Assembly: GCA_964592125.1 (NCBI GenBank) | Contig: CAZQBV010000003.1 | Span: forward strand, 1,605 to 65,604 | Source of the DNA: an uncultured Christensenella sp. | GTDB taxonomy: Bacteria; Bacillota; Clostridia; Christensenellales; Christensenellaceae | Direction of reading: 5' to 3' | Length of the DNA: 64,000 bases | Shown here: one piece after another, positions 7,070-60,733 of the stretch | Numbering within the stretch: the stretch's first letter is position 1 | Layout of the letters: every line of letters begins with the position of its first letter | Made by a program: the position numbers and the translations under genes | Notes under the pieces: generated by a model | What the model was told of the DNA's origin: nothing | What the model saw: the letters and a program-made list of their open reading frames with translations, nothing else | Database searches by the model: none

Positions 7070-7097
7070 CTAAAGTATTTGAAAGCACTGACGATAT
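7070..7097 (+). promoter_or_regulatory. candidate sigma-28 (SigD/FliA) promoter for the flagellin gene
   Basis: TAAA-N16-GACGATAT versus the B. subtilis SigD consensus TAAA-N15-GCCGATAT. Lies about 150 nt upstream of the flagellin ATG. Confidence 0.6.
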
Positions 7098-7248
7098 AAC
7101 TAACATAAACTTGAAGCTGGAGTTTTGCTGAGGCAGGAGATCCTAGGTAACTCTTTTGGCAAGGTGGGAAGCTGGCATTCAGGTTTGCGATCTACAATTT
7201 TATATTAACGGCAAGATGCCGGATAAAAAAATCAAGGAGGATTATAAA

Positions 7249-12852: not shown

Positions 12853-13152
12853 ATGGATAAAATATCGGGTCTTAATTTATCAATTCAAAGAAACCAATAC
12901 AGCATGCTGAACCAAAACAACATAGAGAACGCTGAATCCTTTAAAGATATTCTAAGCAATTCTATTGCAGAAGCGGACAAGCTTTATCAAGTAACAGAGG
13001 CAGATACGCAAGCGTTGCTTTCTGGTGAAGTGGATAACATTGCGCAAGTGATGGTAAACAGCACAAAATCTGAATTGGCACTGAACATGGTGGTGCAGGT
13101 TCGCAATAAAGTAGTGGAAGCATATAATGAAATTGTAAGAATGCAGGTATAA
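12853..13152 (+). CDS. fliE: flagellar hook-basal body complex protein FliE
   Basis: 99 aa. Its position after flgC and the C-terminal ALNMVVQVRNKVVEAYNEIVRMQV are typical of FliE. Confidence 0.85.
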   Translation: MDKISGLNLSIQRNQYSMLNQNNIENAESFKDILSNSIAEADKLYQVTEADTQALLSGEVDNIAQVMVNSTKSELALNMVVQVRNKVVEAYNEIVRMQV

Positions 13153-24410: not shown

Positions 24411-24516
24411 AGTAGCAAAGAATTTTAACGATATTATAGTGATAGAGTAAATGATTTGAGTTTTGTTGTGGCATAAGCAAATAGGCCGGAACATAATGCT
24501 AAGAGGGGGAGGTTAT

Positions 24517-24858
24517 ATGATACGCGGTATAGATAATCAGATGATGATACAGCAAAGTCTTAACGCTTCTAAAATTGTTGGGGAACGGCATGCGGACAAA
24601 GAGGTTCGCAAAGAATTTCAGGCGCATTTGGAAAGAGAGCGTGTTGTAAACGAGCAAAACACTGTGGGGGATGCAGAAAAAGTAGAGCATCGCAGGATAG
24701 AAAAAGAGAAAGATGAACAGCATACCAGTGATGAGTATACTGACCCTGAAAGCAGAATGTTAAAGAAGAATAAAAGAGGCGCTAAAACACCACAAGAGGA
24801 GAACGCTGAAAAGCTTTTGGCAGGTGGTGTAGGTGTAGAAATAGACATAGATGTATAA
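24517..24858 (+). CDS. small, highly charged hypothetical protein (113 aa)
   Basis: ATG at 24517 lies 6 nt after GAGGGGGAGG. K/E/R/D-rich with no motif I recognise. Confidence 0.5.
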   Translation: MIRGIDNQMMIQQSLNASKIVGERHADKEVRKEFQAHLERERVVNEQNTVGDAEKVEHRRIEKEKDEQHTSDEYTDPESRMLKKNKRGAKTPQEENAEKLLAGGVGVEIDIDV

Positions 24859-25592: not shown

Positions 25593-26357
25593 ATGCTGAG
25601 AAGTTTTTACATTGCAGGTACTGGAATGATGACGCAACGCGCAAAGATGGATGTTGTGATCAATAATATAACGAATGGCGATACAGTGGGATACAAGAAT
25701 GACAAGGTGATTACTCGCTCTTTTCAGGATATGCTTTTGGAGCGTTTGCACGACCCGAATTTTATTAGCCGTAGGCAGGTGGGGCCGCAGAACACAGGCC
25801 TTTATGTAGATGAGCTGGTAACAAATTTTGCACAGGGGTCGCCTCAAACCACTAACATAGCAACTGATATGATGATAAATGGAGAGGGCTTCTTCACGAT
25901 ACAAACACCGGAAGGCATTCAGTATACGCGAGCGGGAAACTTTGCTACCAATGCAGCGGGGGATTTGCTGACGCAGGATGGTAACTATGTGCTGGGTCAG
26001 GGCGGTGGACGCATCAATTTGGGGCCGGGCGGGCCGGCAAGAATGGTTGTGAACCCAGATGGTACGATAACTGTGGATGGAGTACAGCGTGCCAGATTGC
26101 AAATAGTAGAATTTGAAGATACAAATGTACTGCGAAAAATGGGTAACAATAATTTTGTACCATACAACAACGCAGCGCCGCGACAGGCACAAAATTCTTC
26201 TGTACAGCAGGGCGCAATAGAAGGCTCTAATGTGGAAATGGGGCAGGAAGTAACAGAAATGTTAATGACGAATAGAGTGTATGAATCCAGCCAGCGTATA
26301 TTGCGAATGACGGACGAATCCTTATCTAGAACAGTAAACGATATAGCGAAGTTTTAA
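25593..26357 (+). CDS. flagellar basal-body rod protein, FlgF/FlgG family (FlhO-like)
   Basis: N-terminal MLRSFYIAGTGMMTQRAKMDVVINNITNGDTVGYK. C-terminal QGAIEGSNVEMGQEVTEMLMTNRVYESS. Confidence 0.9.
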   Translation: MLRSFYIAGTGMMTQRAKMDVVINNITNGDTVGYKNDKVITRSFQDMLLERLHDPNFISRRQVGPQNTGLYVDELVTNFAQGSPQTTNIATDMMINGEGFFTIQTPEGIQYTRAGNFATNAAGDLLTQDGNYVLGQGGGRINLGPGGPARMVVNPDGTITVDGVQRARLQIVEFEDTNVLRKMGNNNFVPYNNAAPRQAQNSSVQQGAIEGSNVEMGQEVTEMLMTNRVYESSQRILRMTDESLSRTVNDIAKF

Positions 26358-26371
26358 GGAGAATTGAGACT

Positions 26372-27184
26372 ATGATGCAGGGCACTTACACTGCGGCACT
26401 GGGAATAATGTCGCAGCAAAAAAGAATAGATACCATAGCCAATAACTTGGCAAATGTAAGCACAAATGGCTATAAAAGCAACCGTGCGGATTTTAAAGAT
26501 GCGTTGTACCAAACCATGCAGCGTGTGGAGCAACCGCAGGACAACTTGAACATGAAAAAGGGATCGGGTGTACTGGTTTCTGGTTTTATTAGAAATTTTG
26601 TAACGGGCTTTATGAACGAAGGCTCGGAAACCAATTGTTTTATGGAAAACCCACCCGGTGTAACCACTTTTTTTGCTGTAAGGCAGGGAAATGGTGAAGT
26701 GGCATATACCAGAGATGGCGCATTTGAAAAAAGTGTTGAGGCAGATGGTGTTTATCTTGTGACAGCAGGCAGACAATATGTATTGGATCAAAATGGTCAA
26801 AGGATTAGATTGCCTGAGGATGGACAGCTTTTGATTGGCAAAGATGGAACGATATCCAGTGTGACGACTGTAAAGAACGAAAAGGGTGAAGATGTTGTGA
26901 CAACTACCCCCTATGCAAAAATTGGGATTTATGCTTTTCCAAACCCAGATGGTTTGGAACTGATATCTGGCAACATGTTTGCGGCATCTGCTAACTCGGG
27001 CACTGCGCGTGCAGCGGGTACAGATGAATACAGTGTAGTGCAGGGGGCGTATGAAGGCTCCAATGTAGACCTTGCTGAGGAGATGTCTCAATTGGTGAGA
27101 GGTACACGCATGTTGCAATTCTCTTCACGGGCACTGTCCACGGCAGATCAGATGGATGAAACTGCAATATCGGTGAGACGTTAA
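26372..27184 (+). CDS. flagellar basal-body rod protein, FlgF/FlgG family (FlhP-like)
   Basis: N-terminal AALGIMSQQKRIDTIANNLANVSTNGYK. C-terminal QGAYEGSNVDLAEEMSQLVRGTRMLQF. Confidence 0.9.
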   Translation: MMQGTYTAALGIMSQQKRIDTIANNLANVSTNGYKSNRADFKDALYQTMQRVEQPQDNLNMKKGSGVLVSGFIRNFVTGFMNEGSETNCFMENPPGVTTFFAVRQGNGEVAYTRDGAFEKSVEADGVYLVTAGRQYVLDQNGQRIRLPEDGQLLIGKDGTISSVTTVKNEKGEDVVTTTPYAKIGIYAFPNPDGLELISGNMFAASANSGTARAAGTDEYSVVQGAYEGSNVDLAEEMSQLVRGTRMLQFSSRALSTADQMDETAISVRR

Positions 27185-27663: not shown

Positions 27664-27978
27664 ATGAAAGTAAATGTGACTTTTCCTGTAGCAGGATTGG
27701 AACAATACAAAGCAACAAGGAAAAAGGCAGAAGTGGGCTCGGCAACCCAGGTAAGCCAGCATGATGAAATTGCATTCTCTAAAGATGCAACCTTGTTTTC
27801 TGATGTTTTGAAAGCTGCAAAAAGCTCTATAAGTGATCGCTTGGAGAAGTCTGACATCAATATTGATACGATAAAGAGCAAAATTGAAAGTGGAGCCTAT
27901 GAAGTGAAAGCGGAAGAACTGGCAGACAGCATACTGATGCTTCAGGGGTATTACGAAAGAAGGCAGTTGAATGATTGA
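27664..27978 (+). CDS. flgM: anti-sigma-28 factor FlgM
   Basis: 104 aa. C-terminal IDTIKSKIESGAYEVKAEELADSIL is typical of FlgM. Confidence 0.8.
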   Translation: MKVNVTFPVAGLEQYKATRKKAEVGSATQVSQHDEIAFSKDATLFSDVLKAAKSSISDRLEKSDINIDTIKSKIESGAYEVKAEELADSILMLQGYYERRQLND

Positions 27979-28620: not shown

Positions 28621-30144
28621 ATGAGATCAACATTTTACGGACTGGAAATAGCAAAAACGGGATTGTTTACAGCACAAAATCAATTGGATGTAACAGGGCA
28701 CAATATGTCTAACTCCTCTACAGTTGGATATACCCGGCAAAGGCTTGTAACAAAGGCGATGCCGCCGGGATATGGCGATACCTTTATAGCTGTGGATAGG
28801 AAAAGCACAGCAGGACGTGGTGTAAACACAATGTTTATCGAGCAGGTGCGCAACCCGTTCCTAGACCATCAATATAGGAATGAAAATGCCACAACTACGC
28901 AATGGACAACAAAAGAGCAACATTTTGAATATGTAGAGGCTCTGTTTAACAACGAGCTGGATCAAATGGATGTTTCGGCAGGACTGACCAGTGTGATAGA
29001 AGGTTTTTATAGCAGCCTGTATGCCTTGGTGGCGAGCCCATCCAATTCCCCCGCACGTAACAGTGTGAAGGAAAATGCGATAAAGATTACTGATTCCATG
29101 CATCTTTATTACAACAAGCTAATAGAACAGCAGGATGCATTGAATGAAAGTATACGGATTTCTGTAAATGAAGTAAATGATTTGGTAGACCAAATTGCGC
29201 TTTTGAATAAGCAAATTAGTTCTTTTGAAATAACAGGCGCACGGGCGAATGATCTGCGTGACCAGCGTAACGTTTTGTTGGATACGCTTTCGGGAATTAT
29301 GAACATTACAGTGAGTGAAGACCCCAATGGACAGATGGTGGTGCAGGTGGGCAACAAGACACTGATACACCATGACCGCACAAAGCATATGGTGGTAGAA
29401 AAAGATGTGCCGAACGCGATACCGGGTGAAGCAGATGTATACGGAATTTACTGGGCGGATGCTGACGGAAACTCTACGGGTAGAGCTGTGGAGATTACCA
29501 ATGGTGCGTTGCGGGGCTATTTGGACATTCGCGATGGAGACAGCTCTACCAACCCGGGTATACCGCAGGTGGTGGAGCAATTGAATGCCATGGCTCGTAA
29601 ATTGGTGGAAGAATTCAATGCAGTGCATACAACGGGTTGGACATTGCCGGGCACGGTGAATCAAGCTTCGCGCACGGGTATTAATTTTTTTGATGTGGCA
29701 GGGCTGACTGCAAAAACAATTTCGCTGGATGCAGAAATTTTGAAGGATGCCAGTAACATTGCTTGCTCGGACATGCCAGTGTTGGATCCAACAAAAGAAA
29801 ACAATCAAACGGGTAATGCCGAAATATTAAAAAAACTTTGCGACCTGATATACAAGAAGGATGACGATGGCAGACCGGACAACCTGAGCGGACGTTATAA
29901 GGAACTGTTAAACAGTATTTCTTTATCTATGAGCCATATGCATACTACGTCTGATGCGCAGAGTGTGATGAGGGCTCATTTGGATCAACAACGGAAATCT
30001 ATCAGCGCAGTTTCACTTGACGAGGAAATGACTAATATTGTGCGTTTTGGCCATTCTTACAGTGCTGCGTCGCGTATGATAACTGCAATAGATGAGGAAC
30101 TGGATACTTTAATAAACAGAATGGGTCTGGTGGGGCGGTCTTAA
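28621..30144 (+). CDS. flgK: flagellar hook-associated protein 1, FlgK
   Basis: N-terminal MRSTFYGLEIAKTGLFTAQNQLDVTGHNMSN. C-terminal VSLDEEMTNIVRFGHSYSAASRMI. Confidence 0.92.
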   Translation: MRSTFYGLEIAKTGLFTAQNQLDVTGHNMSNSSTVGYTRQRLVTKAMPPGYGDTFIAVDRKSTAGRGVNTMFIEQVRNPFLDHQYRNENATTTQWTTKEQHFEYVEALFNNELDQMDVSAGLTSVIEGFYSSLYALVASPSNSPARNSVKENAIKITDSMHLYYNKLIEQQDALNESIRISVNEVNDLVDQIALLNKQISSFEITGARANDLRDQRNVLLDTLSGIMNITVSEDPNGQMVVQVGNKTLIHHDRTKHMVVEKDVPNAIPGEADVYGIYWADADGNSTGRAVEITNGALRGYLDIRDGDSSTNPGIPQVVEQLNAMARKLVEEFNAVHTTGWTLPGTVNQASRTGINFFDVAGLTAKTISLDAEILKDASNIACSDMPVLDPTKENNQTGNAEILKKLCDLIYKKDDDGRPDNLSGRYKELLNSISLSMSHMHTTSDAQSVMRAHLDQQRKSISAVSLDEEMTNIVRFGHSYSAASRMITAIDEELDTLINRMGLVGRS

Positions 30145-30198
30145 AAGCTAGCACCATTGCTTTTTGTTTAAGATGATAACGCATGGAGGAACAAGTAG

Positions 30199-31749
30199 AT
30201 GCGAATAACAAATTCCATGATGATGGATAATGTACTAAAAGATTTGAATAACGGCATGCTGCGCATGGATAAATATAGTTCACAGCTTGCAAGTAACCGC
30301 AAAATGGTGCGGTTGTCGGACAACTCAATTGGGCTGAATAATAGCTTGAATGCGCGGGCTCAACTGAGACAAATTCAGCAATATCGTGATAATATTGTGA
30401 CGGCACGCCAATGGACGCAGCAGGCAGAATCTTCTATTACTGATATGCAGAGCATTGTGAGGACGGTTTACGAGAACACGATTGATGCTGGTGGCGTAAA
30501 AAATCCTGATGACAAAAAAAATATTGCGACGTTGATTAACCAGATGAAACAACATTTGTTTGAAACCTGCAATACTGCAATTGCGGATAAATATATTTTT
30601 GGTGGGTTCAATACATCTACAAAGCCTTTTTCTATGGATGCAAATGGTAAAGTTTTGTATAATGGCTTGGATTTGGGCGCTAGCACGCCGCCAAGGCCTG
30701 CGAATGCGTTTGGCATTGTTACTGATGTAACATTTGGAGCGTGGACAGGCGATATTTACCCACTGGAAAATTATACAATTACTGCAAATGGTGCGGATGA
30801 ATTGCTCTTTACAACCGCAGATGGGTCAGTTACAAAAACGGTGAAAATACCTACGCCCCGAGAAGGTATGAATACGATTAATATGACAAGCCAAGGGTTG
30901 GGTGTGATTACCTACGAATGTACGGATCCTCTCAACCTGCCTACGGCTACGGATATAAGAGATGCAATTGCTGTTGCGGGTAGTGTTTCGTCGGATTTAT
31001 ATGTGATGGCCACACAAATTGAGATGGAAACTGCAATACAGCAGCCAGCGAGTGACCCAGCTGCTGCAATTACTTGGAATGGTCCTATGACGGCACAGGG
31101 TAAGTTTACTGTTTCTACAACCAATAATCCGGGAGAGATTGCCATACACGATGAGCGGGGCACTTTGATTACAAAGCAAACATTGGTGCCCGGTGCTGGG
31201 GGCATAGACCTGACATCTGTAGGGTTGGGCACAATCACTTGGAACCCAGCGACCGTTGCCACTGCAGAAGATATAGCAGATTCCTTGTCTAACACAGGGT
31301 TTGTAACAACAAAACTGGGACAGGAAATGTCGCAGCATATTCGATTTGAGACAGGGTTTGAAACGTCTACAGATGCCACTTTCAATGGAATACAGCTGGT
31401 GGGCTTGGGCAAAGAAAATTTATTTCGCATCCTAGACGATTTGCTGACAGATTTAAATGCGGGTGAAAATAATGATGTGCTTACAACACACTTAACGCGT
31501 TTATTAAATAAGCAAGATGCTTTCTTGACCAATATTGTGGAGCTGGGCGCACGTGCAACGAAGCTGGATATGATGGAGAATAGGTATCAAGTAGACTTTA
31601 TCAATGCAGAAGCGGTGCGTACAGATATTGAGGATATTGACCAGGCGTATGTTATTATGCAGTATAAGTTCTGTGAAGCGATATACAGACAGGCGTTGGC
31701 AGCCGGAGCACAAATTATACAGCCGACTTTGATGGATTTCTTAAGATAA
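30199..31749 (+). CDS. flgL: flagellar hook-associated protein 3, FlgL, enlarged (516 aa)
   Basis: Flagellin-like N and C termini (MRITNSMMMDNVLKDLNN...; ...DIDQAYVIMQYKFCEAIYRQALAAGAQIIQPTLMDFLR). Follows flgK. Confidence 0.88.
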   Translation: MRITNSMMMDNVLKDLNNGMLRMDKYSSQLASNRKMVRLSDNSIGLNNSLNARAQLRQIQQYRDNIVTARQWTQQAESSITDMQSIVRTVYENTIDAGGVKNPDDKKNIATLINQMKQHLFETCNTAIADKYIFGGFNTSTKPFSMDANGKVLYNGLDLGASTPPRPANAFGIVTDVTFGAWTGDIYPLENYTITANGADELLFTTADGSVTKTVKIPTPREGMNTINMTSQGLGVITYECTDPLNLPTATDIRDAIAVAGSVSSDLYVMATQIEMETAIQQPASDPAAAITWNGPMTAQGKFTVSTTNNPGEIAIHDERGTLITKQTLVPGAGGIDLTSVGLGTITWNPATVATAEDIADSLSNTGFVTTKLGQEMSQHIRFETGFETSTDATFNGIQLVGLGKENLFRILDDLLTDLNAGENNDVLTTHLTRLLNKQDAFLTNIVELGARATKLDMMENRYQVDFINAEAVRTDIEDIDQAYVIMQYKFCEAIYRQALAAGAQIIQPTLMDFLR

Positions 31750-43711: not shown

Positions 43712-45142
43712 GTGGTAGTTACAAAAAATATTTTGGAGATTGCGCCCGCGCAGCCAGTAAAGCAAAGAGACCCTGCCAGAAGCAATGGTGACTTTATGAA
43801 GCAGCTGGATCAAGCAGCAAGATATAGAGCTGATAGCAAGCAGGATAGGCCAGAGCGAGCAAATGCTATCCAAGAGAAGAGCGATGACAACAAGTGTTGT
43901 GAAAAAAAGGTTGCTGATTCCCCAAAAGAGGAAGCAAAAAGCGAAACACCTGTAGCAGAAGAGTTGCAAAAAACGCCTGAGACAGAAATGGTAGAAGAGC
44001 CTTTGGAAGAGAAAAAAGACCAACCCGAGGTATTTGCTGCAATTCCAATGATTATGGCAAATGAAATTGCAGACGTTTTTGTTGTGGAACAACAGTCTGC
44101 TGTGATTGATGTAGCCACTGGTATCAGCATTGAGCCTATTAACGAACTGAACTTAGAGGTAAATATGCCCGTGGTGGATGCCCAGCAGCCAGTGAAAACA
44201 GAGGTAGCGTCATTTGTTGAACTGATGCATGAAAATGCACAGACGGTACTTCAGAATGAAAATGGACAGATTGCATCGGCTGCCAAGGAAGTATTGGAAC
44301 AACCTGTAAACATATTGACAGATGCAGATACAATGGATACGGAACCGGACGTGCAACAGCAAAAGGCCGGAACGAAGACAGTGGCGGTGGAGCAAGCGGC
44401 ACAGCCGGAAACAATGCAGTTTGTAAAACAGGTTGTGCAGGAAATGGACGCTAAGTTAAAACAAGAAGTAGACACTACACCCAAAGCAATGCCAAGCACA
44501 ACAAATGTTGAACTGGAAACTGCTGTGGAAAAACCTGCTATGATGCAGGGAAATGACGATTCCGACAATGCGGCGACCAAGCAAAAGGAGATACCTGTAT
44601 TGCAGCACCCCCTAACAGCGCCAATTGCGCAAGATGGCAAGGTGGATTTTAAAATGAGTATGCAGGAACTTCAGCCGCAGGAACAGCAGCTATTGAAACA
44701 AAATGTGCAGACGCAAATTATTGACCAAGTAAGAAGCCTGGTAACGCAGGAGAAGACAGAGTTTTACCTGCAACTGAAGCCGGAACACTTGGGTGGACTT
44801 TCCATTATGCTGGCAGCGGGCGAAAAAGGCCTTGTGGCCAAATTGATGACAGCAAGCAAGGATGTTCACATGATGTTGCAAAATGATATGACACAAATTC
44901 AGGAAAGCTTGAAAGAGCGTGGTATCACAATTGTTCAAATGGAAGTGGTTTACGATCAAATGGCCAGTACAACTGGCAAACAAAATACAAATGATGGACA
45001 GGGCTGGGAAGCAAATGGTTCCCCCGGTAGTCAAGGAAGAGTACTGGAAGATATAATCGAGGGAGGATCCCTCACATATGACGAACTGTCTAATTATGAT
45101 ATACTTGCAGAGCAAGGAGGTTCTGTGGAATTTAGTGCATAG
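43712..45142 (+). CDS. fliK: flagellar hook-length control protein FliK
   Basis: Long Q/E/P-rich ruler region followed by C-terminal EFYLQLKPEHLGGLSIMLAAGEKGLVAKLMTASKDV (Flg_hook-type). GTG start after GAGAGGAGGTG. Confidence 0.85.
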   Translation: MVVTKNILEIAPAQPVKQRDPARSNGDFMKQLDQAARYRADSKQDRPERANAIQEKSDDNKCCEKKVADSPKEEAKSETPVAEELQKTPETEMVEEPLEEKKDQPEVFAAIPMIMANEIADVFVVEQQSAVIDVATGISIEPINELNLEVNMPVVDAQQPVKTEVASFVELMHENAQTVLQNENGQIASAAKEVLEQPVNILTDADTMDTEPDVQQQKAGTKTVAVEQAAQPETMQFVKQVVQEMDAKLKQEVDTTPKAMPSTTNVELETAVEKPAMMQGNDDSDNAATKQKEIPVLQHPLTAPIAQDGKVDFKMSMQELQPQEQQLLKQNVQTQIIDQVRSLVTQEKTEFYLQLKPEHLGGLSIMLAAGEKGLVAKLMTASKDVHMMLQNDMTQIQESLKERGITIVQMEVVYDQMASTTGKQNTNDGQGWEANGSPGSQGRVLEDIIEGGSLTYDELSNYDILAEQGGSVEFSA

Positions 45143-45172: not shown

Positions 45173-45862
45173 ATGGCAACAATACCAACGCCGGTAACGG
45201 CAGGGACAACAGGCACGACGTCCACACAAAGCACAAACCGGGTTCCCAAACAGAATCTGGGGAAGAACGAGTTTCTACAAATATTGGCAGTACAGATGTC
45301 CAATCAGGATCCTTTGGAGCCTACGAGCGATACCGAATGGATTGCCCAAATGGCACAGTTTTCTTCATTGGAACAAATGCAGGAAATGAATGCTTCTGTT
45401 ACAAGCCAAAAAGCGCACTCCATGATTGGAAAATTTGTAGCTGCGGATGTGAAGGATGCAACTGGAGCAACGCAGAGTATACAGGGTCTTGTTTCTGGAG
45501 TTGTAAAATCTGGTGGAACAGATTACCTGATAGTAGGTGATTTTAAAGTGCCGATGGAATCGGTGAAGTATGTTTATGACAGTGGTATAGATCAACAAGC
45601 GCTGGTGGCACAAACAGCAAACTTGATTGGCAAAACAGTAACGGCAGAAGTGGCGACAAACGAAAAAGACGAGTCGGGCAACTATAAAACCGAGAAAATT
45701 ACGGGTGAAGTAGAATATGTTGTCATAGAAAATGGCATTATGTATGCCAAACTGAAAGACACGGCCGATATGAAGGGCAGAAAAATCATGATTTCGGATA
45801 TTATACAATTTGGAGCGACAAGCGCAAGTGGCAGTGAAGAGACTGTTGCTGGAGAGGGCTGA
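45173..45862 (+). CDS. flgD: flagellar hook capping/assembly protein FlgD
   Basis: NEFLQILAVQMSNQDPLEPTSDTEWIAQMAQFSSLEQM. Confidence 0.92.
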   Translation: MATIPTPVTAGTTGTTSTQSTNRVPKQNLGKNEFLQILAVQMSNQDPLEPTSDTEWIAQMAQFSSLEQMQEMNASVTSQKAHSMIGKFVAADVKDATGATQSIQGLVSGVVKSGGTDYLIVGDFKVPMESVKYVYDSGIDQQALVAQTANLIGKTVTAEVATNEKDESGNYKTEKITGEVEYVVIENGIMYAKLKDTADMKGRKIMISDIIQFGATSASGSEETVAGEG

Positions 45863-52529: not shown

Positions 52530-52557
52530 TTACTAATATCGGAAAGGCAGAACCTTT

Positions 52558-53613
52558 ATGTTGGCCACTCCCAAAAGGATAAGAGTTCTTATTGTAGATG
52601 ATTCGGTTTTTTTTAGAACCATTTTAACCAACTTATTGCTAAAGTTTCCACAGATACAAGTAGTGGGGTTGGCGGCTGATGCTGATGAGGCGCAGGCAAA
52701 AGTGGTAGAGCTAAAGCCTGATGTGATTACTTTAGATATCAATATGCCCAAAATGAACGGGGTTGATTTTTTAAAGACGCAAATTCCACGTAAATGGATT
52801 CCTGTTGTTGTAATTAGCACTCGGAATGATATTGTTTTTGAGGCAATGGATGCGGGGGCTGTAGATTTTGTGGAAAAGCCAAGTATTACGCCTAGGCAAA
52901 GTTTGGATGGTTTTGCAAGCGAAATTGCAGATAAAATTACGGTGGCTGCCAATGCAACTCCTGCAAAAAGCAAAATACGCTCGGCTCCGATTGTTGTACC
53001 GCCAGAAAAGGGTGTAGCTTCTGCGCGCTTAGGAGGTGCGGCTACCAAAGGTCTTATTGCGTTGGGGGCATCAACGGGTGGTACAGAAGCAACAAGTTTT
53101 ATTTTAAAACAATTGCCAAGCGATATTCCGGGCATGGTAATTGTGCAGCACATGCCGCCGATTTTTACAAAGATGTATGCGGAACGGTTGAATAGGGAAA
53201 CCAAGCTAACTGTAAAAGAAGCTGAAGAGCGAGACGTTATTTTGGCGGGGCATGCGTATGTGGCTCCCGGAGATGCACATATTGAAGTAATTAAAGAAGG
53301 TACAGAGCTTTACATACACTGTAACAAAAAGGAAAAAGTGAACGGGCATCGCCCTTCTGTAGATGTGATGTTTGACTCTGTGGCAAAATTTGCCGATAAA
53401 AGCACAACCGCAATTATATTAACAGGAATGGGTCAGGATGGTGCAAAGGGAATGGTGCGCCTTCGCAAACGTGGCGCATTTACCATTGGGCAGGACGAAG
53501 CCTCCAGTGTGGTATATGGCATGCCTATGGTGGCATATCAACTAGGTGGTGTTGAAAAACAGGCACCTTTGGATATGATTGCTCAAGTGTTAATGGAACA
53601 TTTAAAAAGGTAG
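52558..53613 (+). CDS. cheB: chemotaxis methylesterase/deamidase CheB
   Basis: REC is VLIVDDS...DINMPKMNG. The esterase domain has GASTGG, QHMPP and GMGQDG. Confidence 0.93.
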   Translation: MLATPKRIRVLIVDDSVFFRTILTNLLLKFPQIQVVGLAADADEAQAKVVELKPDVITLDINMPKMNGVDFLKTQIPRKWIPVVVISTRNDIVFEAMDAGAVDFVEKPSITPRQSLDGFASEIADKITVAANATPAKSKIRSAPIVVPPEKGVASARLGGAATKGLIALGASTGGTEATSFILKQLPSDIPGMVIVQHMPPIFTKMYAERLNRETKLTVKEAEERDVILAGHAYVAPGDAHIEVIKEGTELYIHCNKKEKVNGHRPSVDVMFDSVAKFADKSTTAIILTGMGQDGAKGMVRLRKRGAFTIGQDEASSVVYGMPMVAYQLGGVEKQAPLDMIAQVLMEHLKR

Positions 53614-53895: not shown

Positions 53896-54078
53896 AGTAT
53901 GATTATACTAATTTCAGTTAGAAAAGCAATGAAAATACAATGATACAGTGCCTAAAATAATTTGTTCAAGCAATGAAAAGTAGAAAATAAGGCTTTTATC
54001 TAAACAAATCAGGCATATGTACGATATAAAATATATAGTTTGCCTTGGGAAGCAAGTGTTTTGAGATGGAGGATAGTA

Positions 54079-56016
54079 ATGCAAATTACACCTATGAATA
54101 GTAAACCGATTGGTGCAGATATTGTAAATTGGGGCGAAGGTGGGAACTCGCCTTTTCATGCTGTGCGTGAAGGTCAAATCATAAAGGCGGAAGTTGTTGC
54201 TGCGGAAGGAAGTTCGCTTACAATAAAACTAAGTGACGGAAGTACTGTAAAGGCAGATTTTCCGGGCGCACAGGTGATGTTGCCTGGAGATCAACTGGAG
54301 CTGATGATGATGTCTAAAGCGGATGGCAACATTCACCTAAGGCTAACCACAATAAATGGCCAGCAAGTGCAAATGGGCACTGGAGACCTGCAGGTTCGCC
54401 TTATGGACATGGGTGTACAGCCTTCTGAAATAAACACAAAGGCGGCTCAATTTTTAGTCGATAGAAATGTGCAGCCCACACCGGAACGTGTTGCATTACT
54501 CGTAAAAATAGCAATGCAGTATCCAGAACTGCCAGCTTCTGTGGCCTTGTTTGTTGCAGAAAACAACATACCGGTTACTCAGCAAAATATAAATGCATTG
54601 ATGTTGTGGCTGCAAAGTGGGCAAACCCTCGGCAATGAAGCACAACAACTTATTAATGATGTGAATCTTTTCCTAACGGAGCAACTTGGTAAAACAACCC
54701 AGCCGGAATTGGTACCTTCAATCGCAGGGCAAACAGAGCAGAATGCTGAGCCATTGCAAAACAAAGCAATGCACACAAATGTAGATCATTCGGCAGCGAT
54801 GCCTGGGCAGGTGCCAGCGAATGATGCAGCCCAGACGGGTTTGGATGCGCGTGCAAAATTGCTTGCGTTGATTGCGCAGCTAAACAATCCCGCCCCTTCC
54901 GCCGAAACGGCGCAACCAGCATTTATGGCAGAAATTACACAGGGACAATCTGGAGTTGTAGCAGAACAGATACTCACAAATTCTCAGCAGGCAGTATTTC
55001 AAAATGCTTTTATGTCTATTGTAAGCCATAGCCCGGTAGAGCGGGCAATTCACCAATTGCCACAAAATGCCGTTTTGGATTTTGCCTCCACATTGGCAAA
55101 CACGAATGAGACACAAGTACAACAAGCCATAGAAGGGTTTCTTTCGAAGTTTCCGCTAACAGCAGAGCAGAAAGCCGAAGTGGCACAAACTTTGCAAATT
55201 GCGTATCAAACTGGACGTGTGGCGGCCTCCACAGTGCTGGCTGATTCGGCTGTAGACGGACAGGCGCAAATGGCGCAACAACCAACTTCCAATGCGCAGG
55301 AAACGATGGCACAGCAAAATACTATGTTGCAGGGCAGTGCCGCAAAACAGAATGGCACAGCAATAAACCAACCGCAAGTGTTTGGGGACGCAGCCATACA
55401 GGAAATGCAGCAGCTGTTGCAAGTATTGGATAAGTTGACTGTTGGTATCAGGCACAATGCGCGAATAGATGCCGAAAACTTGCAAAATGCTGTGAAAAGC
55501 CAGCAACAAATTGCGGACAGTGTGCAGAGCGGCCTTTCTAGGGTGATGGGGGATTCCAGCAACGTAACACAGCGTGCTGCGGATATTTCCTCTCGGATAC
55601 AACTGGGAAACAACATAGAAAATTTTTACTATTGCCAGATACCCATAGAAATGAGTCAAAATAAGAGCACGGCAGAGCTATACGTATTTGAACGCAAGCA
55701 AAAGGGCAATGCAGAAGAGCGCACCAATACAACCATATTGATTGCATTGGAAACGCAGAATATGGGCAGGGTGGAAACGGTAATGCGTTCTGAACGGGAT
55801 AGTTTGGGAATAGAATTTCGGGTACAGAGCCCAGTTATTGTAAACTATTTGCAAAAAACAACTGCAGAGCTTGCGCAGTCGCTTGCAGGTGATGATTTTG
55901 CTGTCAAGGAAATTCGCGTGGTACAGATGAATAAGCCTGTTACCCCGCTAAATGTGGATCAGATGCTGGGAGAAAAAGAATATTTTCAGTTGCAAACTGT
56001 GGATATAAGTATATAA
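54079..56016 (+). CDS. 645-aa hypothetical protein with a Q/A-rich middle and a FliK-C-terminal-like domain
   Basis: ATG at 54079 after GATGGAGGA. C-terminal ILIALETQNMGRVETVMRSERDSLGIEFRVQSPVIVNYLQKTTAELAQSLAGDDFAVKEIRV follows the LxLxPExLGxLxI pattern of the FliK switch domain. Confidence 0.55.
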   Translation: MQITPMNSKPIGADIVNWGEGGNSPFHAVREGQIIKAEVVAAEGSSLTIKLSDGSTVKADFPGAQVMLPGDQLELMMMSKADGNIHLRLTTINGQQVQMGTGDLQVRLMDMGVQPSEINTKAAQFLVDRNVQPTPERVALLVKIAMQYPELPASVALFVAENNIPVTQQNINALMLWLQSGQTLGNEAQQLINDVNLFLTEQLGKTTQPELVPSIAGQTEQNAEPLQNKAMHTNVDHSAAMPGQVPANDAAQTGLDARAKLLALIAQLNNPAPSAETAQPAFMAEITQGQSGVVAEQILTNSQQAVFQNAFMSIVSHSPVERAIHQLPQNAVLDFASTLANTNETQVQQAIEGFLSKFPLTAEQKAEVAQTLQIAYQTGRVAASTVLADSAVDGQAQMAQQPTSNAQETMAQQNTMLQGSAAKQNGTAINQPQVFGDAAIQEMQQLLQVLDKLTVGIRHNARIDAENLQNAVKSQQQIADSVQSGLSRVMGDSSNVTQRAADISSRIQLGNNIENFYYCQIPIEMSQNKSTAELYVFERKQKGNAEERTNTTILIALETQNMGRVETVMRSERDSLGIEFRVQSPVIVNYLQKTTAELAQSLAGDDFAVKEIRVVQMNKPVTPLNVDQMLGEKEYFQLQTVDISI

Positions 56017-56025
56017 TATTGCGCG

Positions 56026-56066
56026 CGATTTATTATGAAGTATGTCGCTTCATTCATCGGTTTTTT
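56026..56066 (+). terminator. rho-independent terminator after the FliK-like gene
   Basis: CGAT...ATGAAG-TATGTCG-CTTCAT...ATCG stem followed by GTTTTTT. Confidence 0.6.
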
Positions 56067-56144: not shown

Positions 56145-56172
56145 TTGCTTTTTAAATAAATTCTGATATAAT
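56145..56172 (+). promoter_or_regulatory. candidate extended -10 sigma-A promoter
   Basis: TTGCTT-N16-TATAAT with TG at -15/-14 (TGATATAAT). Confidence 0.4.
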
Positions 56173-56207
56173 ATTTTATATGTATGCACAGGAGGGATAT
56201 TTTAACT

Positions 56208-57272
56208 ATGCCAATTACAGATTCGGTTAGTAATGTTTACATGAACAACATGTATGTAACTGGTGGCAATGCCAACAATAATTATGCAAGTGGTGTTTCG
56301 CAAACTCCATCTTTGACTAATCTAGGCAATGCTCTCCCGACTGCAAATAACAGTAACAATCTTACAAACTCATTTTCGCAAATGTTAAGCGGTATGATGG
56401 CTGGCAATACAGCCAATATGGCTTCGGGCATTGGCGATTTTTCTGGTTTGGGAGGAAGTGGCGATACCAGCTCTGCTTTAAGCGGACTAATGGGCATGGG
56501 CAGCGGTAGCAGTATGGATAGTATGGGTGGATCTTCCGAATCCAACATAATGATGATGATGGTACTGTTGCTTTTGGCACAGCAGAACAACAATGGGCAA
56601 AACAACAACCTATTAAATAGCTTGAATGGAAACAATGCTGCTACAATGGGCTACAACAATGCCAATGCATCTGCGCAGACCTATGCCAATATGGCAAGCC
56701 AGGGAATCCCTACAAATTCAGCTTCGGTTGCCAATGCGGCAATTACTAGCAACGTTGGGCAGCGCAGTGCAGATCTTTATCGTGCAGTTATTAACCAGTT
56801 TAATGTGGAATCAAATCAGCGTTATGCTGTGAATAAGCAGGGGATAGGTGATACCTACTGCAATATCTTCGCATGGGACGTAACGCGAGCAATGGGTGCG
56901 GAAGTGCCGCACTATATAGATAGCGCAACGGGTGCACCGGTTTCTTCTGGCGCAGGCGGTGCCAAGGAGCTGAATGCAAACCAAGTGAACGATTGGCTCA
57001 ATAGCACTGGGCGAGCCTTTGGCTGGACAAAAGTTTCCGCAGAAGAGGCACAGTACTACGCCAATATGGGAATGCCAGCCATTACTTCGTGGAAAAATTC
57101 TGCTGGGCATGGGCATTTGCAGGTAGTAAGCCCATCGGTGGATGGACAGTACGACCCCTCCAGAGGGGTGGCAATTGCTCAGGCAGGTCGTCAGGTGAAA
57201 AACTACGACTATATCACATCGGTATATGGCGCAAGCACCTTGCCACATGTGGAGTATTTTGTGCATGTATAA
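56208..57272 (+). CDS. hypothetical protein with an N/G/S/M-rich low-complexity N-terminal half and a C-terminal Cys/His papain-like (CHAP/NlpC-P60-like) domain
   Basis: ATG at 56208 downstream of GGAGGG. The C-terminal half contains GDTYCNIFAWDVTRAMG and NSAGHGHLQVVSP. No classical signal peptide. Confidence 0.5.
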   Translation: MPITDSVSNVYMNNMYVTGGNANNNYASGVSQTPSLTNLGNALPTANNSNNLTNSFSQMLSGMMAGNTANMASGIGDFSGLGGSGDTSSALSGLMGMGSGSSMDSMGGSSESNIMMMMVLLLLAQQNNNGQNNNLLNSLNGNNAATMGYNNANASAQTYANMASQGIPTNSASVANAAITSNVGQRSADLYRAVINQFNVESNQRYAVNKQGIGDTYCNIFAWDVTRAMGAEVPHYIDSATGAPVSSGAGGAKELNANQVNDWLNSTGRAFGWTKVSAEEAQYYANMGMPAITSWKNSAGHGHLQVVSPSVDGQYDPSRGVAIAQAGRQVKNYDYITSVYGASTLPHVEYFVHV

Positions 57273-57447
57273 TCAGGTTTGTAGTTCTATGTTTTACTTA
57301 TATGATGCGGATTTATGTGAAAGTCCACCTTTTGCGGCTAGCAAGGGGCAAGGGCTTTTCTGCTTTTTGATAGGATCATTTAGGGCATGAAATCAACACA
57401 AAATGTCGTAAGGTCAATATTTCGCAAAAAACAGTTGCTAAAAACGA

Positions 57448-57474
57448 TAAAGTTTCACTGCTATCTTACGATAT
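57448..57474 (+). promoter_or_regulatory. candidate sigma-28 promoter for the fliD operon
   Basis: TAAA-N15-TACGATAT, about 60 nt upstream of the fliD ATG. Confidence 0.55.
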
Positions 57475-57536
57475 AAGAAATAGTGAGAAGATTAATGTTT
57501 GGTTATTTGATTATTTAGATAAAGGAAGTGGATATT

Positions 57537-59807
57537 ATGGCAACAAGCCCAATAAGTTCTTATTCAACATCAAGGATAACCGGCCTTGCATCCGGGATGG
57601 ATACAGATAGCTTGATTCAAAAACTGATGAAGACCGAGCAAATGAAGCTGGACAGGGTGTTTAAGCAGACAACCACCTTGGAATGGAAGAAGAGTGCCTA
57701 TACGGATATCAATGCTCAAATAAAAACATTCCGGGACAAGTTTATGAACACTTTGAGTGCAGACAACGTGCTTTCTAAAAGTGTTTATAAGGCAAACAAA
57801 GTAAACTATACAGAAAATAAATATGTTGATATAAAGGCAACCTCCACCGCAAGTATATCCAGCCATAAAATAAGTGGCATTTCGCTTGCGGATTATGCAA
57901 AGCTTGATGGTGTGAAGCATCGCAATCGTTATATATCTGCTTCAGGCGATGGCGGGAAAAATTTAGTTGCATCAACAACAGGTGCAGCTTTAACCGGTGA
58001 AACCGCAGCCAGCACTATGGAAGATGTCTTTGGCATTGCATCGGGAGAACAAGTTTCCTTTTCCATCAATGGGGAAGTATTTACTTTTGACCATACCGAT
58101 ACATTGCAGGATGTTATGAACAGTGTGAATGCATCCAGCAAAGCAAATGTCACAATGGAGTTTGCAGGCGAAAAAATAACACTCACCAGCAAAACTGCTG
58201 GTGAAAGCTCTAAATTGGTATTGAAAAACATCACAGGCCCCGAAGTGTTTGGTACAAACAAAGCTTTTGGTGCTGTGGGCACAGTGAATGCCACAAACAA
58301 GGTTGACCCGGCTACCACCACCTTGGCTCAACTGGAAACCATAACCGGCAATAGCTTTGGTTTTGTAGGCGGAGCGGTAAAGCTGAAAATAAATGATGTA
58401 GAAATTACACTGACCAATACAATGACAGTGGACGATATGCTTGCAGAAATCAATGGTTCTGCAGCGAACGTGACTGCAAGTTATGACAAAAATGCAGATA
58501 AATTCTACATCAGAAACAACAACGGTGGCTCTGGTGCGGCGCTAAAGCTGGAAAACAGTGTAGGCAAAGTGTTTGGGGAAAAGGGCTTGCTGGGAGGAAT
58601 TGCAGCAGGTACTCTTTCTAAATACGAAGCAGTGGATAGGGATAAGGATAGCATTGTTACAGCTGCCGAAAAAATGGGTATAAAGCTGCAGCTGGATGAA
58701 AGTGGTAAATTTAGCTTTACCGTTTCAGATGGAACAAAGTCCAAAGACTTTTCATTTGATGCCAAAACCACCACACTAAAGTCTATGATAGACAAGGTGA
58801 ACGGGGATGCCGACATCAATGTAACGATGTCCTATAGCCAGATTACAGATTCCTTTACCTTTACCAGTGGTGAGACAGGGGAAGCATCTAAAATAACGGT
58901 TTCAAACAAAGGTGGCACAAATGCTTTTGGCGGTGCAGATTCGTTCTTTGGTATTGCTGCAGGTACTACCACAGGTAAAGATGCAGTTATTGTAATTGAT
59001 GGCGAAGAAGTGAAGCAGGCAAGCAACTCCTTTGTATTGGATGGCATTCAATTTACCTTGAAAGCGAACATGGCAACGGTGGATTCTGCTGACGACGATA
59101 AGATGATAAACTTTTCTATCAGTCAGGATATTGATAGCGTTGTAGACAAAGTAAAAGCATTTGTAGCCGAATACAACAAGCTGGTTCAAAGCTTGAATGA
59201 TAGGATTCATGAAGAAAAGGACTTTGACTATGAGCCGCTAACGCAAGAAGAACTTAGTGCGATGTCCGAAAAAGAGATAGAGAAGTTTGAGACAGAGGCA
59301 AAAAAAGGTTTGCTAAGGAATGACACCACAATCAATTCCTTACTAACCACAATGCGCCAGAGCTTGTTTGAAAAGGTAGGAGATACAGGCCTTTCCCCTC
59401 ATGACATTGGCCTTACCACAGGCGACTGGGTAAACAATGGCCAAATTAAATTTGATGAGGATAAATTCCGTGCTGCTTTAAAGGAAAATCCTGATGCGGT
59501 AGCCACTGTAATGGCCGCGTCTTCTTCCTCTTCAGATAAAGCTGTAGCGCGTGCGGAATCTGGGCTGCTGGGGCGTTACTTTGATCAGTTGTCAGACACG
59601 CAAAATACGCTAACAAAAACAAATATTAAGAACACAGACAAAGCTATTTACGACAACGAGAAGAAAATGAGTGATATGTTGGATCGTATGTACCAGATGG
59701 AAGAACGCTATTATCTGCAGTTTGCACAAATGGAAACATTGCTTACCAGTTACCAACAGCAGAGTTCTTGGCTTACACAACAGCTTGGCTCTTTGGGAAC
59801 TAATTAA
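57537..59807 (+). CDS. fliD: flagellar filament cap protein FliD, enlarged (756 aa)
   Basis: N-terminal ITGLASGMDTDSLIQKLMKTEQMKLDRV and a C-terminal coiled coil. ATG at 57537 after AAAGGAAGTGG. Confidence 0.92.
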   Translation: MATSPISSYSTSRITGLASGMDTDSLIQKLMKTEQMKLDRVFKQTTTLEWKKSAYTDINAQIKTFRDKFMNTLSADNVLSKSVYKANKVNYTENKYVDIKATSTASISSHKISGISLADYAKLDGVKHRNRYISASGDGGKNLVASTTGAALTGETAASTMEDVFGIASGEQVSFSINGEVFTFDHTDTLQDVMNSVNASSKANVTMEFAGEKITLTSKTAGESSKLVLKNITGPEVFGTNKAFGAVGTVNATNKVDPATTTLAQLETITGNSFGFVGGAVKLKINDVEITLTNTMTVDDMLAEINGSAANVTASYDKNADKFYIRNNNGGSGAALKLENSVGKVFGEKGLLGGIAAGTLSKYEAVDRDKDSIVTAAEKMGIKLQLDESGKFSFTVSDGTKSKDFSFDAKTTTLKSMIDKVNGDADINVTMSYSQITDSFTFTSGETGEASKITVSNKGGTNAFGGADSFFGIAAGTTTGKDAVIVIDGEEVKQASNSFVLDGIQFTLKANMATVDSADDDKMINFSISQDIDSVVDKVKAFVAEYNKLVQSLNDRIHEEKDFDYEPLTQEELSAMSEKEIEKFETEAKKGLLRNDTTINSLLTTMRQSLFEKVGDTGLSPHDIGLTTGDWVNNGQIKFDEDKFRAALKENPDAVATVMAASSSSSDKAVARAESGLLGRYFDQLSDTQNTLTKTNIKNTDKAIYDNEKKMSDMLDRMYQMEERYYLQFAQMETLLTSYQQQSSWLTQQLGSLGTN

Positions 59808-59883: not shown

Positions 59884-60303
59884 ATGTACTACGCAACAGC
59901 CAACCTACAAAATAGATATAAGCAGGATTATGTTACCACTGCCAGTCCAATTGATTTAGTAATCATGCTTTATGATGGGTGCATCAAGCAGTTGAAGTTG
60001 GCAAAAATTCACTTGGAAGAAACAGAGCCTGAATCGCCAAGAAATTTCCTGATTTCAATAGAAAAAGCAGAGGAAATTATACTGGAGCTGATCCGAAGCT
60101 TGAACCTGAAAATTGAGATTTCAAAAGATCTGTTAGATTTGTATCAATTTATGGTGAATGAGCTAGTGGATGTTACTTTCTCTCGAGAATCAGAAAAGAT
60201 TGATCCGGTGATTGATATGCTTAATACCTTGAGGGAATCTTGGGTGGAAGCCAAAAATAGTTTGGGAAATACATTCCAAACTGAAGATGAAATGCAAGGG
60301 TAG
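59884..60303 (+). CDS. fliS: flagellin-specific chaperone FliS
   Basis: YKQDYVTTASPIDLVIMLYDGCIKQLKLA... Follows fliD. Confidence 0.9.
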   Translation: MYYATANLQNRYKQDYVTTASPIDLVIMLYDGCIKQLKLAKIHLEETEPESPRNFLISIEKAEEIILELIRSLNLKIEISKDLLDLYQFMVNELVDVTFSRESEKIDPVIDMLNTLRESWVEAKNSLGNTFQTEDEMQG

Positions 60304-60733
60304 AGCATTGGAAAGCAAAGTGGAGCTGGTTAAGCAGAAATCTTCTTTATTGCAAAAGTTTTTAGATGCAACAAAAAACATACAGGAAATTTTGAATGCA
60401 CCTGAGGAGAAGGAAAAAGTTTCTAAATTGCAAAAAAATGTTGCAGTGCGTGATGCAGTGATAGAGGAAATCAATAGAATAAATAAAATAATTGATCAAC
60501 CGGGCAAGTCGGATGATCAATTTGAAGTAGAACGAGAGAAACATGCATGGCTGTGGGAAAAGCTATTTGAGCAGATAAATGAACTGGAAGAAGACAATGC
60601 GGCTAAAATGGATGCTCTTATGAAAGAATATATGAGTAAGGTGCGTTCAACCAAAGATTCTATTCGCGTGATTGACGCATATGCCAAACAGATGGTTGAA
60701 GAAAGTGCTGCAAATATTGACAAAAATCGCTAA
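60287..60733 (+). CDS. helical protein in the FliT position (putative FliT-like chaperone)
   Basis: 148-aa charged helical protein overlapping the fliS stop. Called on position only. Confidence 0.4.
   Translation: MKCKGRALESKVELVKQKSSLLQKFLDATKNIQEILNAPEEKEKVSKLQKNVAVRDAVIEEINRINKIIDQPGKSDDQFEVEREKHAWLWEKLFEQINELEEDNAAKMDALMKEYMSKVRSTKDSIRVIDAYAKQMVEESAANIDKNR

Follow-up and report, generated by a model that had tools for sequence, protein, structure and literature searches.

A Tse1/Tae1-like papain-fold protein encoded beside fliD in Christensenellales, a candidate flagellar peptidoglycan endopeptidase

The flagella of Gram-positive bacteria have a thick wall to cross. According to the Kearns laboratory, no hydrolase dedicated to the flagellum is known in these organisms, and the one of B. 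subtilis "remains unknown" (bioRxiv 10.1101/2021.01.13.426625). A 64,000-nucleotide stretch of DNA from an uncultured Christensenella sp. (contig CAZQBV010000003.1; "the window" hereafter) holds nearly the whole flagellar and chemotaxis regulon. Within it, upstream of fliD, lies an open reading frame (ORF) for a 354-residue protein, which we call gene X. An initial annotation, made from the letters alone, had suggested a flagellar wall hydrolase or a secreted factor. What does gene X encode, and what would it do for a flagellum? The explanation that we favor, with confidence a little better than even, is a peptidoglycan endopeptidase that is exported by the flagellar type III apparatus and dedicated to the flagellum.

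A conserved gene with a Tae1-like C-terminal domain

The frame of gene X is open from 56184 to 57272 on the forward strand. The ATG at 56208 is preferred over the earlier beginning of the frame, because an AGGAGG sequence lies 12 nt upstream of it and homologues begin with MPI(T/N)D exactly there (Table 1). Gene X is a real, conserved gene and more than a chance ORF, since it has 307 homologues (E <= 1e-3; identities 40-70%, the lowest about 40%) and many invariant positions in an alignment of 59 family members. None of the homologues carries a name or a Pfam domain. The strings singled out by the initial annotation are where they were said to be: FSQMLSGMM at residues 56-64, IMMMMVLLLLA at 114-124, GDTYCNIFAWDV at 214-225 and GHGHLQVV at 300-307. 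The spacing of about 85 residues between Cys and His also holds, with 85 residues from C218, the sole Cys of the protein, to H303.

Neither the single sequence nor the family profile has a significant match in Pfam, NCBIfam, PHROGs or the sequences of the PDB. The profile search that had been recommended against CHAP, NlpC/P60 and amidase models came back without a significant match to gene X or to the 59 members; the sub-threshold hints in these members all fall in the papain clan. As the libraries are silent, classification has come from structure and from profile-profile comparison.

A structure model was obtained by running AlphaFold2 on the family alignment. Over most of the span 171-354 the block-mean pLDDT is 89-98; it drops to 68-81 at residues 201-220. 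When the predicted C-terminal domain (residues ~166-354) was compared with the PDB by Foldseek, each of the 17 best matches was to Tse1/Tae1, a peptidoglycan amidase effector of type VI secretion (E 5.9e-6 to 1e-4, probability 1.0, target TM 0.61-0.71, identity 17-19%). Further papain-fold toxins came next, together with Tae4 and with peptidases of the C39 and C70 families. The papain-like fold that had been proposed for this half is thus what structure prediction returns, with Tse1 as the closest solved match. A viral structure library gave no match to the model below E 0.5, and an origin from a phage endolysin is accordingly unsupported.

Profile comparison by hhalign leads to the same protein. 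Against Tse1 (a query checked to be identical to PDB 4EOB), a 247-sequence domain profile aligns over 132 columns (probability 85%, E 6.4e-6, 26% identity) and pairs DTYC218NIF with DNC30SGF and GH303 with GH91. The narrow family profile aligns over 46 columns at a probability of 10%, placing residues 256-307 of the gene X protein on Tse1 49-95 and H303 again on His91. The Cys...His arrangement noted at the outset therefore has its counterpart in the catalytic Cys30 and His91 of Tse1, with Cys first in both. The spacing is longer in gene X (85 residues vs 61 in Tse1), mainly because of a ~20-residue insertion after the Cys helix, and a position matching Tse1 Cys110 could not be mapped. Gene X thus has the predicted fold and the Cys-His order of the papain-like superfamily and matches none of its curated models. 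Toward Tae1 it has distant similarity in sequence and structure, and it has neither an obvious immunity gene (Tai1) in its flanks nor the context of a type VI secretion system (T6SS).

The domain belongs to a large family. An exhaustive HMM search with a profile of the C-terminal domain found 2571 cluster representatives at E <= 1e-3, 478 of them at E <= 1e-30. The architecture of gene X, an N-terminal extension of 90-260 residues followed by the domain at the C-terminus, is found in 202 of 254 sequences. Elsewhere the domain is joined with PG_binding_1, LysM, Glucosaminidase, SLT, GH19 or GH46 (relatives at E 1e-50 to 1e-61), and in these multidomain relatives, too, the X-type domain itself has no Pfam match. 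These fusions point indirectly to peptidoglycan as the substrate of the domain. Across all architectures the Cys is conserved in 251/253 sequences, the adjacent Asn and an Asp each in 253/253, the His and a Gln each in 253/254, and a penultimate His in 236/238, a pattern that argues for an active enzyme on peptidoglycan. Judged by its sequences, the X-type family is a distinct branch that has no curated model and is marked by an invariant set of C-N, D, H and Q and by a C-terminal H.

Could the domain instead be a catalytically dead binding module, and gene X a structural or regulatory accessory of the flagellum? Two of the 253 domain sequences do lack the Cys. One of them, P0051 (Christensenellaceae, locus L061), has SVVPENVF where gene X has DTYCNIF, and GDGH for GHGH, with the rest of the domain and the adjacency to fliD kept; it may be a pseudo-enzyme. 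Against such a role for gene X, conservation of Cys, His, Asn, Asp and Gln above 99% in 253 sequences of several architectures argues for retained catalysis, and we regard a dead module as highly improbable.

Relatives outside flagellar clusters give further indications of how the domain is used. P0242 has a hydrophobic stretch of ~23 residues before the domain; it is probably membrane-anchored, and its domain may be extracellular. The neighborhood of one multidomain relative is an ordinary cellular one. P0231 (L085-L087), a stand-alone domain of 216 aa, lies between dacF-spoIIAA-spoIIAB-sigF and spoVAE-gerA, which hints at a sporulation-linked use of the X-type domain in its host, a spore-former from rock porewater metagenomes. 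A toxin-immunity reading of the domain family was rejected: three non-flagellar relatives in ordinary cellular or sporulation neighborhoods have no immunity-like partner. The high-GC multidomain proteins P0188 and P0228 (L083) join the X-domain to PG_binding_1, as judged by eye for P0228, and P0188 also to LysM and Glucosaminidase; both are likewise devoid of an obvious N-terminal signal peptide. The family is of interest beyond the flagellum. It is large, it lies outside Pfam, NCBIfam and PHROGs, and it connects housekeeping wall hydrolases with the fold of the Tae1 toxin.

The neighborhood of fliD and its transcription signals

For the genomic context one genome per GTDB species was scanned. 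A relative of gene X was found in 257 genomes, and 80 were kept, mostly Christensenellales or unclassified metagenome-assembled genomes (MAGs) of Bacillota/Clostridia. fliD lies directly downstream in 77 of the 80 loci, 36-448 nt past the match to gene X. It lies 1.4-1.6 kb downstream in two more (L053 and L071), and the remaining locus (L035) is a 2.1-kb contig in which fliD is not in view. An absence of flagellar neighbors in relatives had been named in advance as a ground for giving up a flagellar role; the opposite is found. Where a locus extends far enough, fliS nearly always comes after fliD, as a rule with DUF327 and then CheW, CheR and an SLT gene behind it, and a second FliK-like gene and a small FlhB-C-like gene usually lie upstream of gene X. 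In the window the setting consists of flagellar and chemotaxis genes, with no T6SS context.

This setting bears on whether gene X encodes a type III-secreted effector rather than an assembly factor: an antibacterial Tae1-like toxin that lyses neighboring bacteria, or an enzyme acting in the gut to release muropeptides from peptidoglycan that is shed or foreign. Interbacterial toxins (Tse1/Tae1, Tae4, contact-dependent inhibition toxins and papain-like toxin/immunity pairs) are the nearest proteins of solved structure, and the protein lacks a signal peptide and has an N-terminus disordered like that of type III substrates. Flagellar export machines secrete non-flagellar proteins in some bacteria. 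However, no candidate immunity gene adjoins gene X, which is flanked by fliK2/flhB-C and fliD in essentially all 80 loci. A toxin gene is expected to be patchy and mobile, whereas gene X has a fixed, order-wide synteny and often lies 4-41 nt from fliD. A producer with a single membrane would have its own wall exposed to the enzyme, and the non-flagellar relatives resemble housekeeping wall hydrolases (fusions to PG_binding, LysM and glucosaminidase; a sporulation locus), not toxin cassettes. An effector is therefore unlikely, in our estimate.

How gene X is transcribed is less simple than first described. The initial annotation gave it a candidate promoter of its own and a terminator on the upstream side. 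The extended -10-like element TGATATAAT is indeed present, but its -35 is poor and a consensus scan makes no call there, for which reason a sigma-70 promoter of its own was set aside. The upstream terminator (claimed at 56026-56066) did not hold up: at 56035-56066 there is a stem of 7 bp, rich in A/U, whose folding does not surpass that of shuffled sequence (z = -0.5). On the other side, the terminator-like hairpin that follows gene X is the better candidate, and the region 57273-57360 folds at -24.5 kcal/mol (z = -1.9). The sigma-28 promoter assigned to fliD is found as TAAA-N17-CGATAT. The pattern TAAA-N13-17-CGATAT has five matches in the window vs 0.84 expected by shuffling. A SigD-type promoter directly 5' of gene X is absent from this window and present in only 4 of 75 loci, and read-through from the promoter candidate TAAACAAATCAGGCATATGTACGATAT, before the second FliK-like gene, could also drive gene X. 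The description of the gene as self-contained fits the window, but not many of its relatives. The gap between X and fliD has a median of 95 nt across 75 loci and is 4-41 nt in 24 of them, which implies co-transcription there. Between 53000 and 60000 no structured RNA matches Rfam.

Some observations on the surrounding genes may be added. Besides the two sites in Table 1, the SigD-like pattern occurs at 7071-7097, 24408-24434 and 52536-52558 (-); sites of this kind precede the flagellin gene, a 131-aa ORF, the second FliK-like gene (FliK2) and fliD. The 131-aa ORF (24463-24858, +) has no Pfam or NCBIfam family, nor has a 148-aa ORF (60287-60733, +) that overlaps the end of fliS, where fliT is expected. 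The other FliK-like gene (43712-45142, +) has the canonical fliJ-fliK-flgD position, and FliK2, with its own promoter candidate, pairs with the small FlhB-C-like gene; the pair precedes gene X in most relatives and is possibly a second specificity switch or ruler. A complete Christensenellales-type FliK2-FlhBc-X-fliD-fliS locus is found on a 447-kb contig (L070, JBLNCA010000037.1) of a MAG labelled Burkholderiales, a label likely to reflect mis-binning or mislabelling. The genome of Christensenella intestinihominis AF73-05CM02 (L003) holds a CheB-FlhBc-FliK-X-fliD-fliS-...-SLT cluster, although the species was described as non-motile (PMC7937921).

The N-terminal half and a possible route of export

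The N-terminal ~165 residues are of a different kind. They are acidic and rich in S/G/L/A/N/T/M, and the first Lys/Arg is R186, in keeping with the low-complexity, N/G/S/M-rich N-terminus first described. The model has little confidence here (10-residue block means 38-67, most of residues 1-109 below 50) and places three low-confidence helices at 51-69, 112-125 and 151-166. A Sec signal peptide is absent, as had been stated: 19-residue windows starting in residues 1-40 reach a Kyte-Doolittle maximum of 0.06. A Met/Leu-rich patch lies ~50 residues past the F-motif in most homologues. It is unlikely to be a transmembrane anchor, having a peak 19-residue Kyte-Doolittle value of 1.32, under the customary transmembrane cut-off, a hydrophobic run of ~11-13 residues and no flanking positive charges.

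Conservation in the N-terminal half is poor, and only one residue there, F56, is invariant. It opens a predicted helix of the form F-x-x-Φ-Φ-x-x-x-Φ, and across homologues the invariant Phe has a median position of 30 (range 26-69). In Salmonella, early flagellar subunits carry two export signals spaced at least ~19-30 residues apart; one of them, the gate-recognition motif (36-FLTLL-40 in FlgD), docks on FlhB-C (PMC8983047). The FlhB gene of the window lies at 15776-16849. By its sequence, gene X fits both the motif and the required spacing. In this genome F-x-x-Φ-L occurs at residues 30-57 of FliE (FKDIL; 12853-13152), FlgC (FSDAL; 12390-12827), both FlgF/G proteins (FQDML and FKDAL; 25593-26357 and 26372-27184) and FlgD (FLQIL; 45173-45862), and FlgB and FlgE have F-x-x-L-Y. 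It is absent from FlgK and FlgL (28621-31749), FliD and flagellin (7156-9153) of this genome.

Together with the C-terminal domain, these features suggest how gene X might work. The protein would be made in the cytoplasm, and its N-terminal ~165 residues would direct it to the flagellar type III apparatus for export, with a non-polar extreme N-terminus (MPI...) and, at least 26 residues on, the invariant F-x-x-Φ-L helix docking on FlhB-C as rod and hook subunits do. Exported through the nascent basal body, the C-terminal domain, a putative papain-fold cysteine peptidase with Cys218 as the nucleophile and His303 as the general base, would act on peptidoglycan by cleaving its stem peptides or its cross-links. 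Tse1 cleaves the bond between gamma-D-Glu and the diamino acid, and by analogy this would most likely be the target bond of gene X. Local loosening of the thick wall would then let the rod and hook pass, or rotate freely. Export would be early to judge from the F-motif, or late to judge from the linkage to fliD.

Gene X is not the only candidate for the wall-cutting activity that had been called missing, as the same cluster encodes a CwlQ-like lytic transglycosylase with an SLT domain (260 aa, ~5 kb downstream), a probable partner enzyme. Its N-terminal region lacks a signal peptide and includes an F-x-x-Φ-L motif (31-FDAIL), which orthologues in other loci keep at a similar position; most of the related loci also have the gene in this place, where the flagellar cluster ends. 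Its best NCBIfam match is the flagellar lytic transglycosylase BB0259 of Borrelia, a match at the level of the domain. Common descent of the two N-termini was considered and dropped: hhalign is negative, and what the proteins have in common is the short motif and the want of a signal peptide. Gene X would act beside this enzyme, the one cutting peptides and the other glycan strands. More tentatively, and with clearly less confidence than we have in the exported endopeptidase itself, the two may form a wall-opening kit in which both enzymes are exported by the type III apparatus through the same F-x-x-Φ-L motif as rod and hook subunits.

The motif invites a further comparison. The initial annotation had likened FSQMLSGMM to the rod-binding motif of FlgJ. 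The string is conserved and its Phe is invariant, but homology to the FlgJ rod-binding domain is found neither by Pfam nor by hhalign, and the string fits the general gate-recognition motif of rod and hook proteins at least as well as it does that of FlgJ. Membership in the rod-binding family was accordingly rejected (Pfam Rod_binding, PF10135, unmatched), leaving a resemblance of motif. A bolder version would make gene X the full FlgJ of this lineage. The F-motif helix and the hydrophobic helix ~50 residues on would then be a very divergent rod-binding or rod-cap domain that scaffolds rod polymerization, and the C-terminal domain would clear the wall, as in FlgJ variants with different hydrolase domains. 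In E. coli FlgJ, 43-FVQMMLKSM and, ~45 residues on, GLGLAEMMVKQM resemble 56-FSQMLSGMM and 114-IMMMMVLLLLAQQ of gene X, whose ~50-residue spacing is kept across homologues. No Rod_binding protein was found among the flagellar genes scanned in the window, and the domain architecture of FlgJ is said, by Nambu and colleagues in 2006, to be plastic. On the other hand, Rod_binding is matched neither by gene X (E <= 10) nor by any of the 59 members (E <= 1), the family profile compared by hhalign with E. coli FlgJ 1-150 shows nothing in the N-terminus, and gene X is placed among late genes (fliD, fliS) rather than rod genes. The search for Rod_binding covered the 64-kb window, and a canonical FlgJ may lie elsewhere in the genome. 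A full FlgJ seems to us slightly less probable than an effector.

The lack of a classical secretion signal could also mean that the protein stays in the cytoplasm, where the papain-fold domain might modify FliD, flagellin or a regulator by processing, deamidation or cross-linking, and the N-terminus would serve for contacts with proteins. Papain folds include proteases, deamidases and transglutaminases, the weak Pfam hints are to Gln_amidase, C39 and C92, and gene X is tightly coupled to fliD. However, the domain family is repeatedly joined to peptidoglycan-binding or glycan-cleaving modules, and in the membrane-anchored P0242 the domain is possibly outside. The closest relative by structure and by profile is a peptidoglycan amidase, and a long, disordered N-terminus that is free of Lys/Arg and holds a motif like the gate-recognition motif would sooner be expected of a flagellar protein that is exported. 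We give a cytoplasmic role less weight again than a full FlgJ, if more than a dead module.

Several points weigh against the exported endopeptidase that we favor. On the side of the enzyme, identity to Tse1 is only 17-26%, the proximity of C218 and H303 in a catalytic pair rests on the alignment to Tse1, a third catalytic residue is not assignable, and a few homologues, such as P0051, have lost the Cys. The best papain-clan matches of the 59 members in Pfam have E values of 0.036 (C39_2), 0.17 (C92), 0.4 (Gln_amidase) and 0.43 (CHAP). On the side of export, the F-motif is short, and 8.5% of background ORFs have a stricter version of it within residues 20-75. The putative FlgM (27664-27978), a late substrate, also has F-x-x-Φ-L, so that the motif is no clean mark of early substrates. 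By hhalign the N-terminus has no homology with the N-terminus of E. coli FlgJ (residues 1-150) or with that of the SLT protein, and the conserved Met/Leu-rich patch is left without a role in the proposed mechanism. Finally, dedicated wall hydrolysis has been argued to be dispensable for rod transit in B. subtilis and Salmonella (PMC13584718; bioRxiv 10.1101/2021.01.13.426625), and the role of gene X may thus be an accessory one.

Table 1. Features of the gene X locus, in coordinates of the window
Feature	Coordinates	Strand	Basis
Small FlhB C-terminal-domain-like protein, 97 aa	53602..53895	-	Pfam Bac_export_2 1.2e-20, NCBIfam flhB_rel 3.5e-29
SigD/sigma-28-like promoter candidate before second FliK-like gene	54001..54027	+	Pattern scan
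Second FliK-like (Flg_hook) gene, immediate upstream neighbor of gene X	54040..56016	+	Pfam Flg_hook 5.7e-09; synteny
Extended -10-like element, candidate own promoter of gene X	56164..56172	+	Read from sequence; -35 poor
Ribosome-binding site AGGAGG	56190..56195	+	12 nt 5' of ATG 56208, read from sequence
Gene X (unannotated family), stop codon included	56208..57272	+	ORF, 307 homologues, alignment
N-terminal region (residues 1-165), proposed type III export/targeting region	56208..56702	+	Low model confidence, composition, hydropathy
F-motif FSQMLSGMM, candidate FlhB gate-recognition motif	56373..56399	+	Alignment, helix prediction
Met/Leu-rich patch IMMMMVLLLLA	56547..56579	+	In most homologues; predicted helix 112-125
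C-terminal domain (residues 166-354), putatively catalytic, Tae1/Tse1-like papain fold, no Pfam family	56703..57269	+	Model, Foldseek, hhalign, fusions
Codon of Cys218, proposed nucleophile	56859..56861	+	Aligns with Tse1 Cys30; 251/253 domain sequences
Codon of His303, proposed general base	57114..57116	+	Aligns with Tse1 His91; 253/254 domain sequences
Terminator-like hairpin and U-rich tract 3' of gene X	57319..57369	+	Fold energy of 57273-57360 (see text)
SigD/sigma-28-like promoter candidate for fliD	57448..57474	+	Pattern scan
fliD (filament cap), conserved downstream neighbor	57528..59807	+	Pfam FliD_N, FliD_C
CwlQ-like lytic transglycosylase, 260 aa	62571..63353	+	Pfam SLT 1.7e-26; C-terminal SLT domain

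Comparison with known toxins and flagellar wall hydrolases

If the exported endopeptidase is the right explanation, gene X is a concrete candidate for how Gram-positive flagella cross their thick wall: it is conserved across an order and is predicted to cut peptides rather than glycans, which suggests that different lineages of Bacillota have solved wall transit differently. Literature searches gave no description of a flagellar endopeptidase of the NlpC/P60 type or like Tae next to fliD, and a recent proposal has flagella captured at wall pores independently of hydrolases (PMC13584718). Should the two-enzyme kit prove true, gene X would be the first peptidoglycan endopeptidase dedicated to the flagellum, and also the first Tae1-type amidase to be recruited from interbacterial toxins, or to be ancestral to them, for the assembly of the cell's own machine, and it would supply the "missing" Gram-positive wall-transit activity in Christensenellales. 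It also offers a natural test case, outside the proteobacteria, of whether the FlhB gate-recognition motif governs how non-structural cargo is exported. Christensenellaceae live in the gut and are associated with health; more speculatively, a secreted stem-peptide endopeptidase could shape the muropeptides that reach NOD receptors of the host.

Tse1/Tae1 of P. aeruginosa (PA1844; PDB 4EOB, 4EQ8, 4FQA, 7TVH) is both the best structural match (E ~6e-6, TM up to 0.71) and the only solved protein linked to gene X at the profile level. In both proteins the catalytic domain is small and single, and both have D-x-C-x-x-F-x-x-x-V-x-x-x-(L/M)-G at the nucleophile, NAN, and G-H-V-x-V-V at the His. In gene X the ~20-residue insertion comes after the Cys helix and before NAN, and the domain has an N-terminal extension of ~50 residues. 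Their settings differ. Tse1 is a toxin of a Gram-negative T6SS with the adjacent immunity gene Tsi1, whereas gene X lies in a Bacillota flagellar cluster, has a long disordered N-terminus and has no immunity gene in its flanks. The relation to NlpC/P60 and CHAP enzymes (clan Peptidase_CA) and to other Tae families is more general. They have in common the papain alpha+beta fold, with Cys at the N-terminus of a helix and His on a beta-strand, and the NlpC/P60 and CHAP enzymes act on stem peptides, often in proteins that also have LysM, SH3 or PG-binding modules. None of the clan's models in Pfam, however, matches gene X or its relatives significantly.

Wall hydrolases associated with flagella are already known: FlgJ, SltF, BB0259 and CwlQ. 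FlgJ of Salmonella and E. coli resembles gene X in belonging to the flagellar regulon and in having a disordered N-terminus with an F-x-x-M-(M/L)-x-x-M helix and a C-terminal peptidoglycan hydrolase (a predicted one in gene X). Its catalytic domain, however, is a GH73 glucosaminidase (PF01832) that cuts glycan bonds, whereas the papain fold of gene X would cut peptide bonds; a Rod_binding domain was not detected in gene X, which adjoins fliD and not the rod genes. CwlQ (YjbJ) of B. subtilis is closer in lineage and layout, being a Gram-positive protein of the motility regulon with a poorly conserved N-terminus, a C-terminal wall hydrolase and no Sec/Tat signal. It is a lytic transglycosylase of the SLT type, whereas gene X has no SLT domain and would cut peptides rather than glycans; CwlQ is not required for flagellar assembly (bioRxiv 10.1101/2021.01.13.426625). 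SltF of Rhodobacter and BB0259 of Borrelia are dedicated flagellar wall cutters separate from the rod cap, as proposed for gene X. They are Sec-exported, periplasmic, glycan-cleaving enzymes of diderms, whereas gene X is a predicted peptidase of Bacillota with no Sec signal. What sets gene X apart from all four is its Tae1-like papain fold, its membership in a large uncurated family and its place beside fliD in a Gram-positive order.

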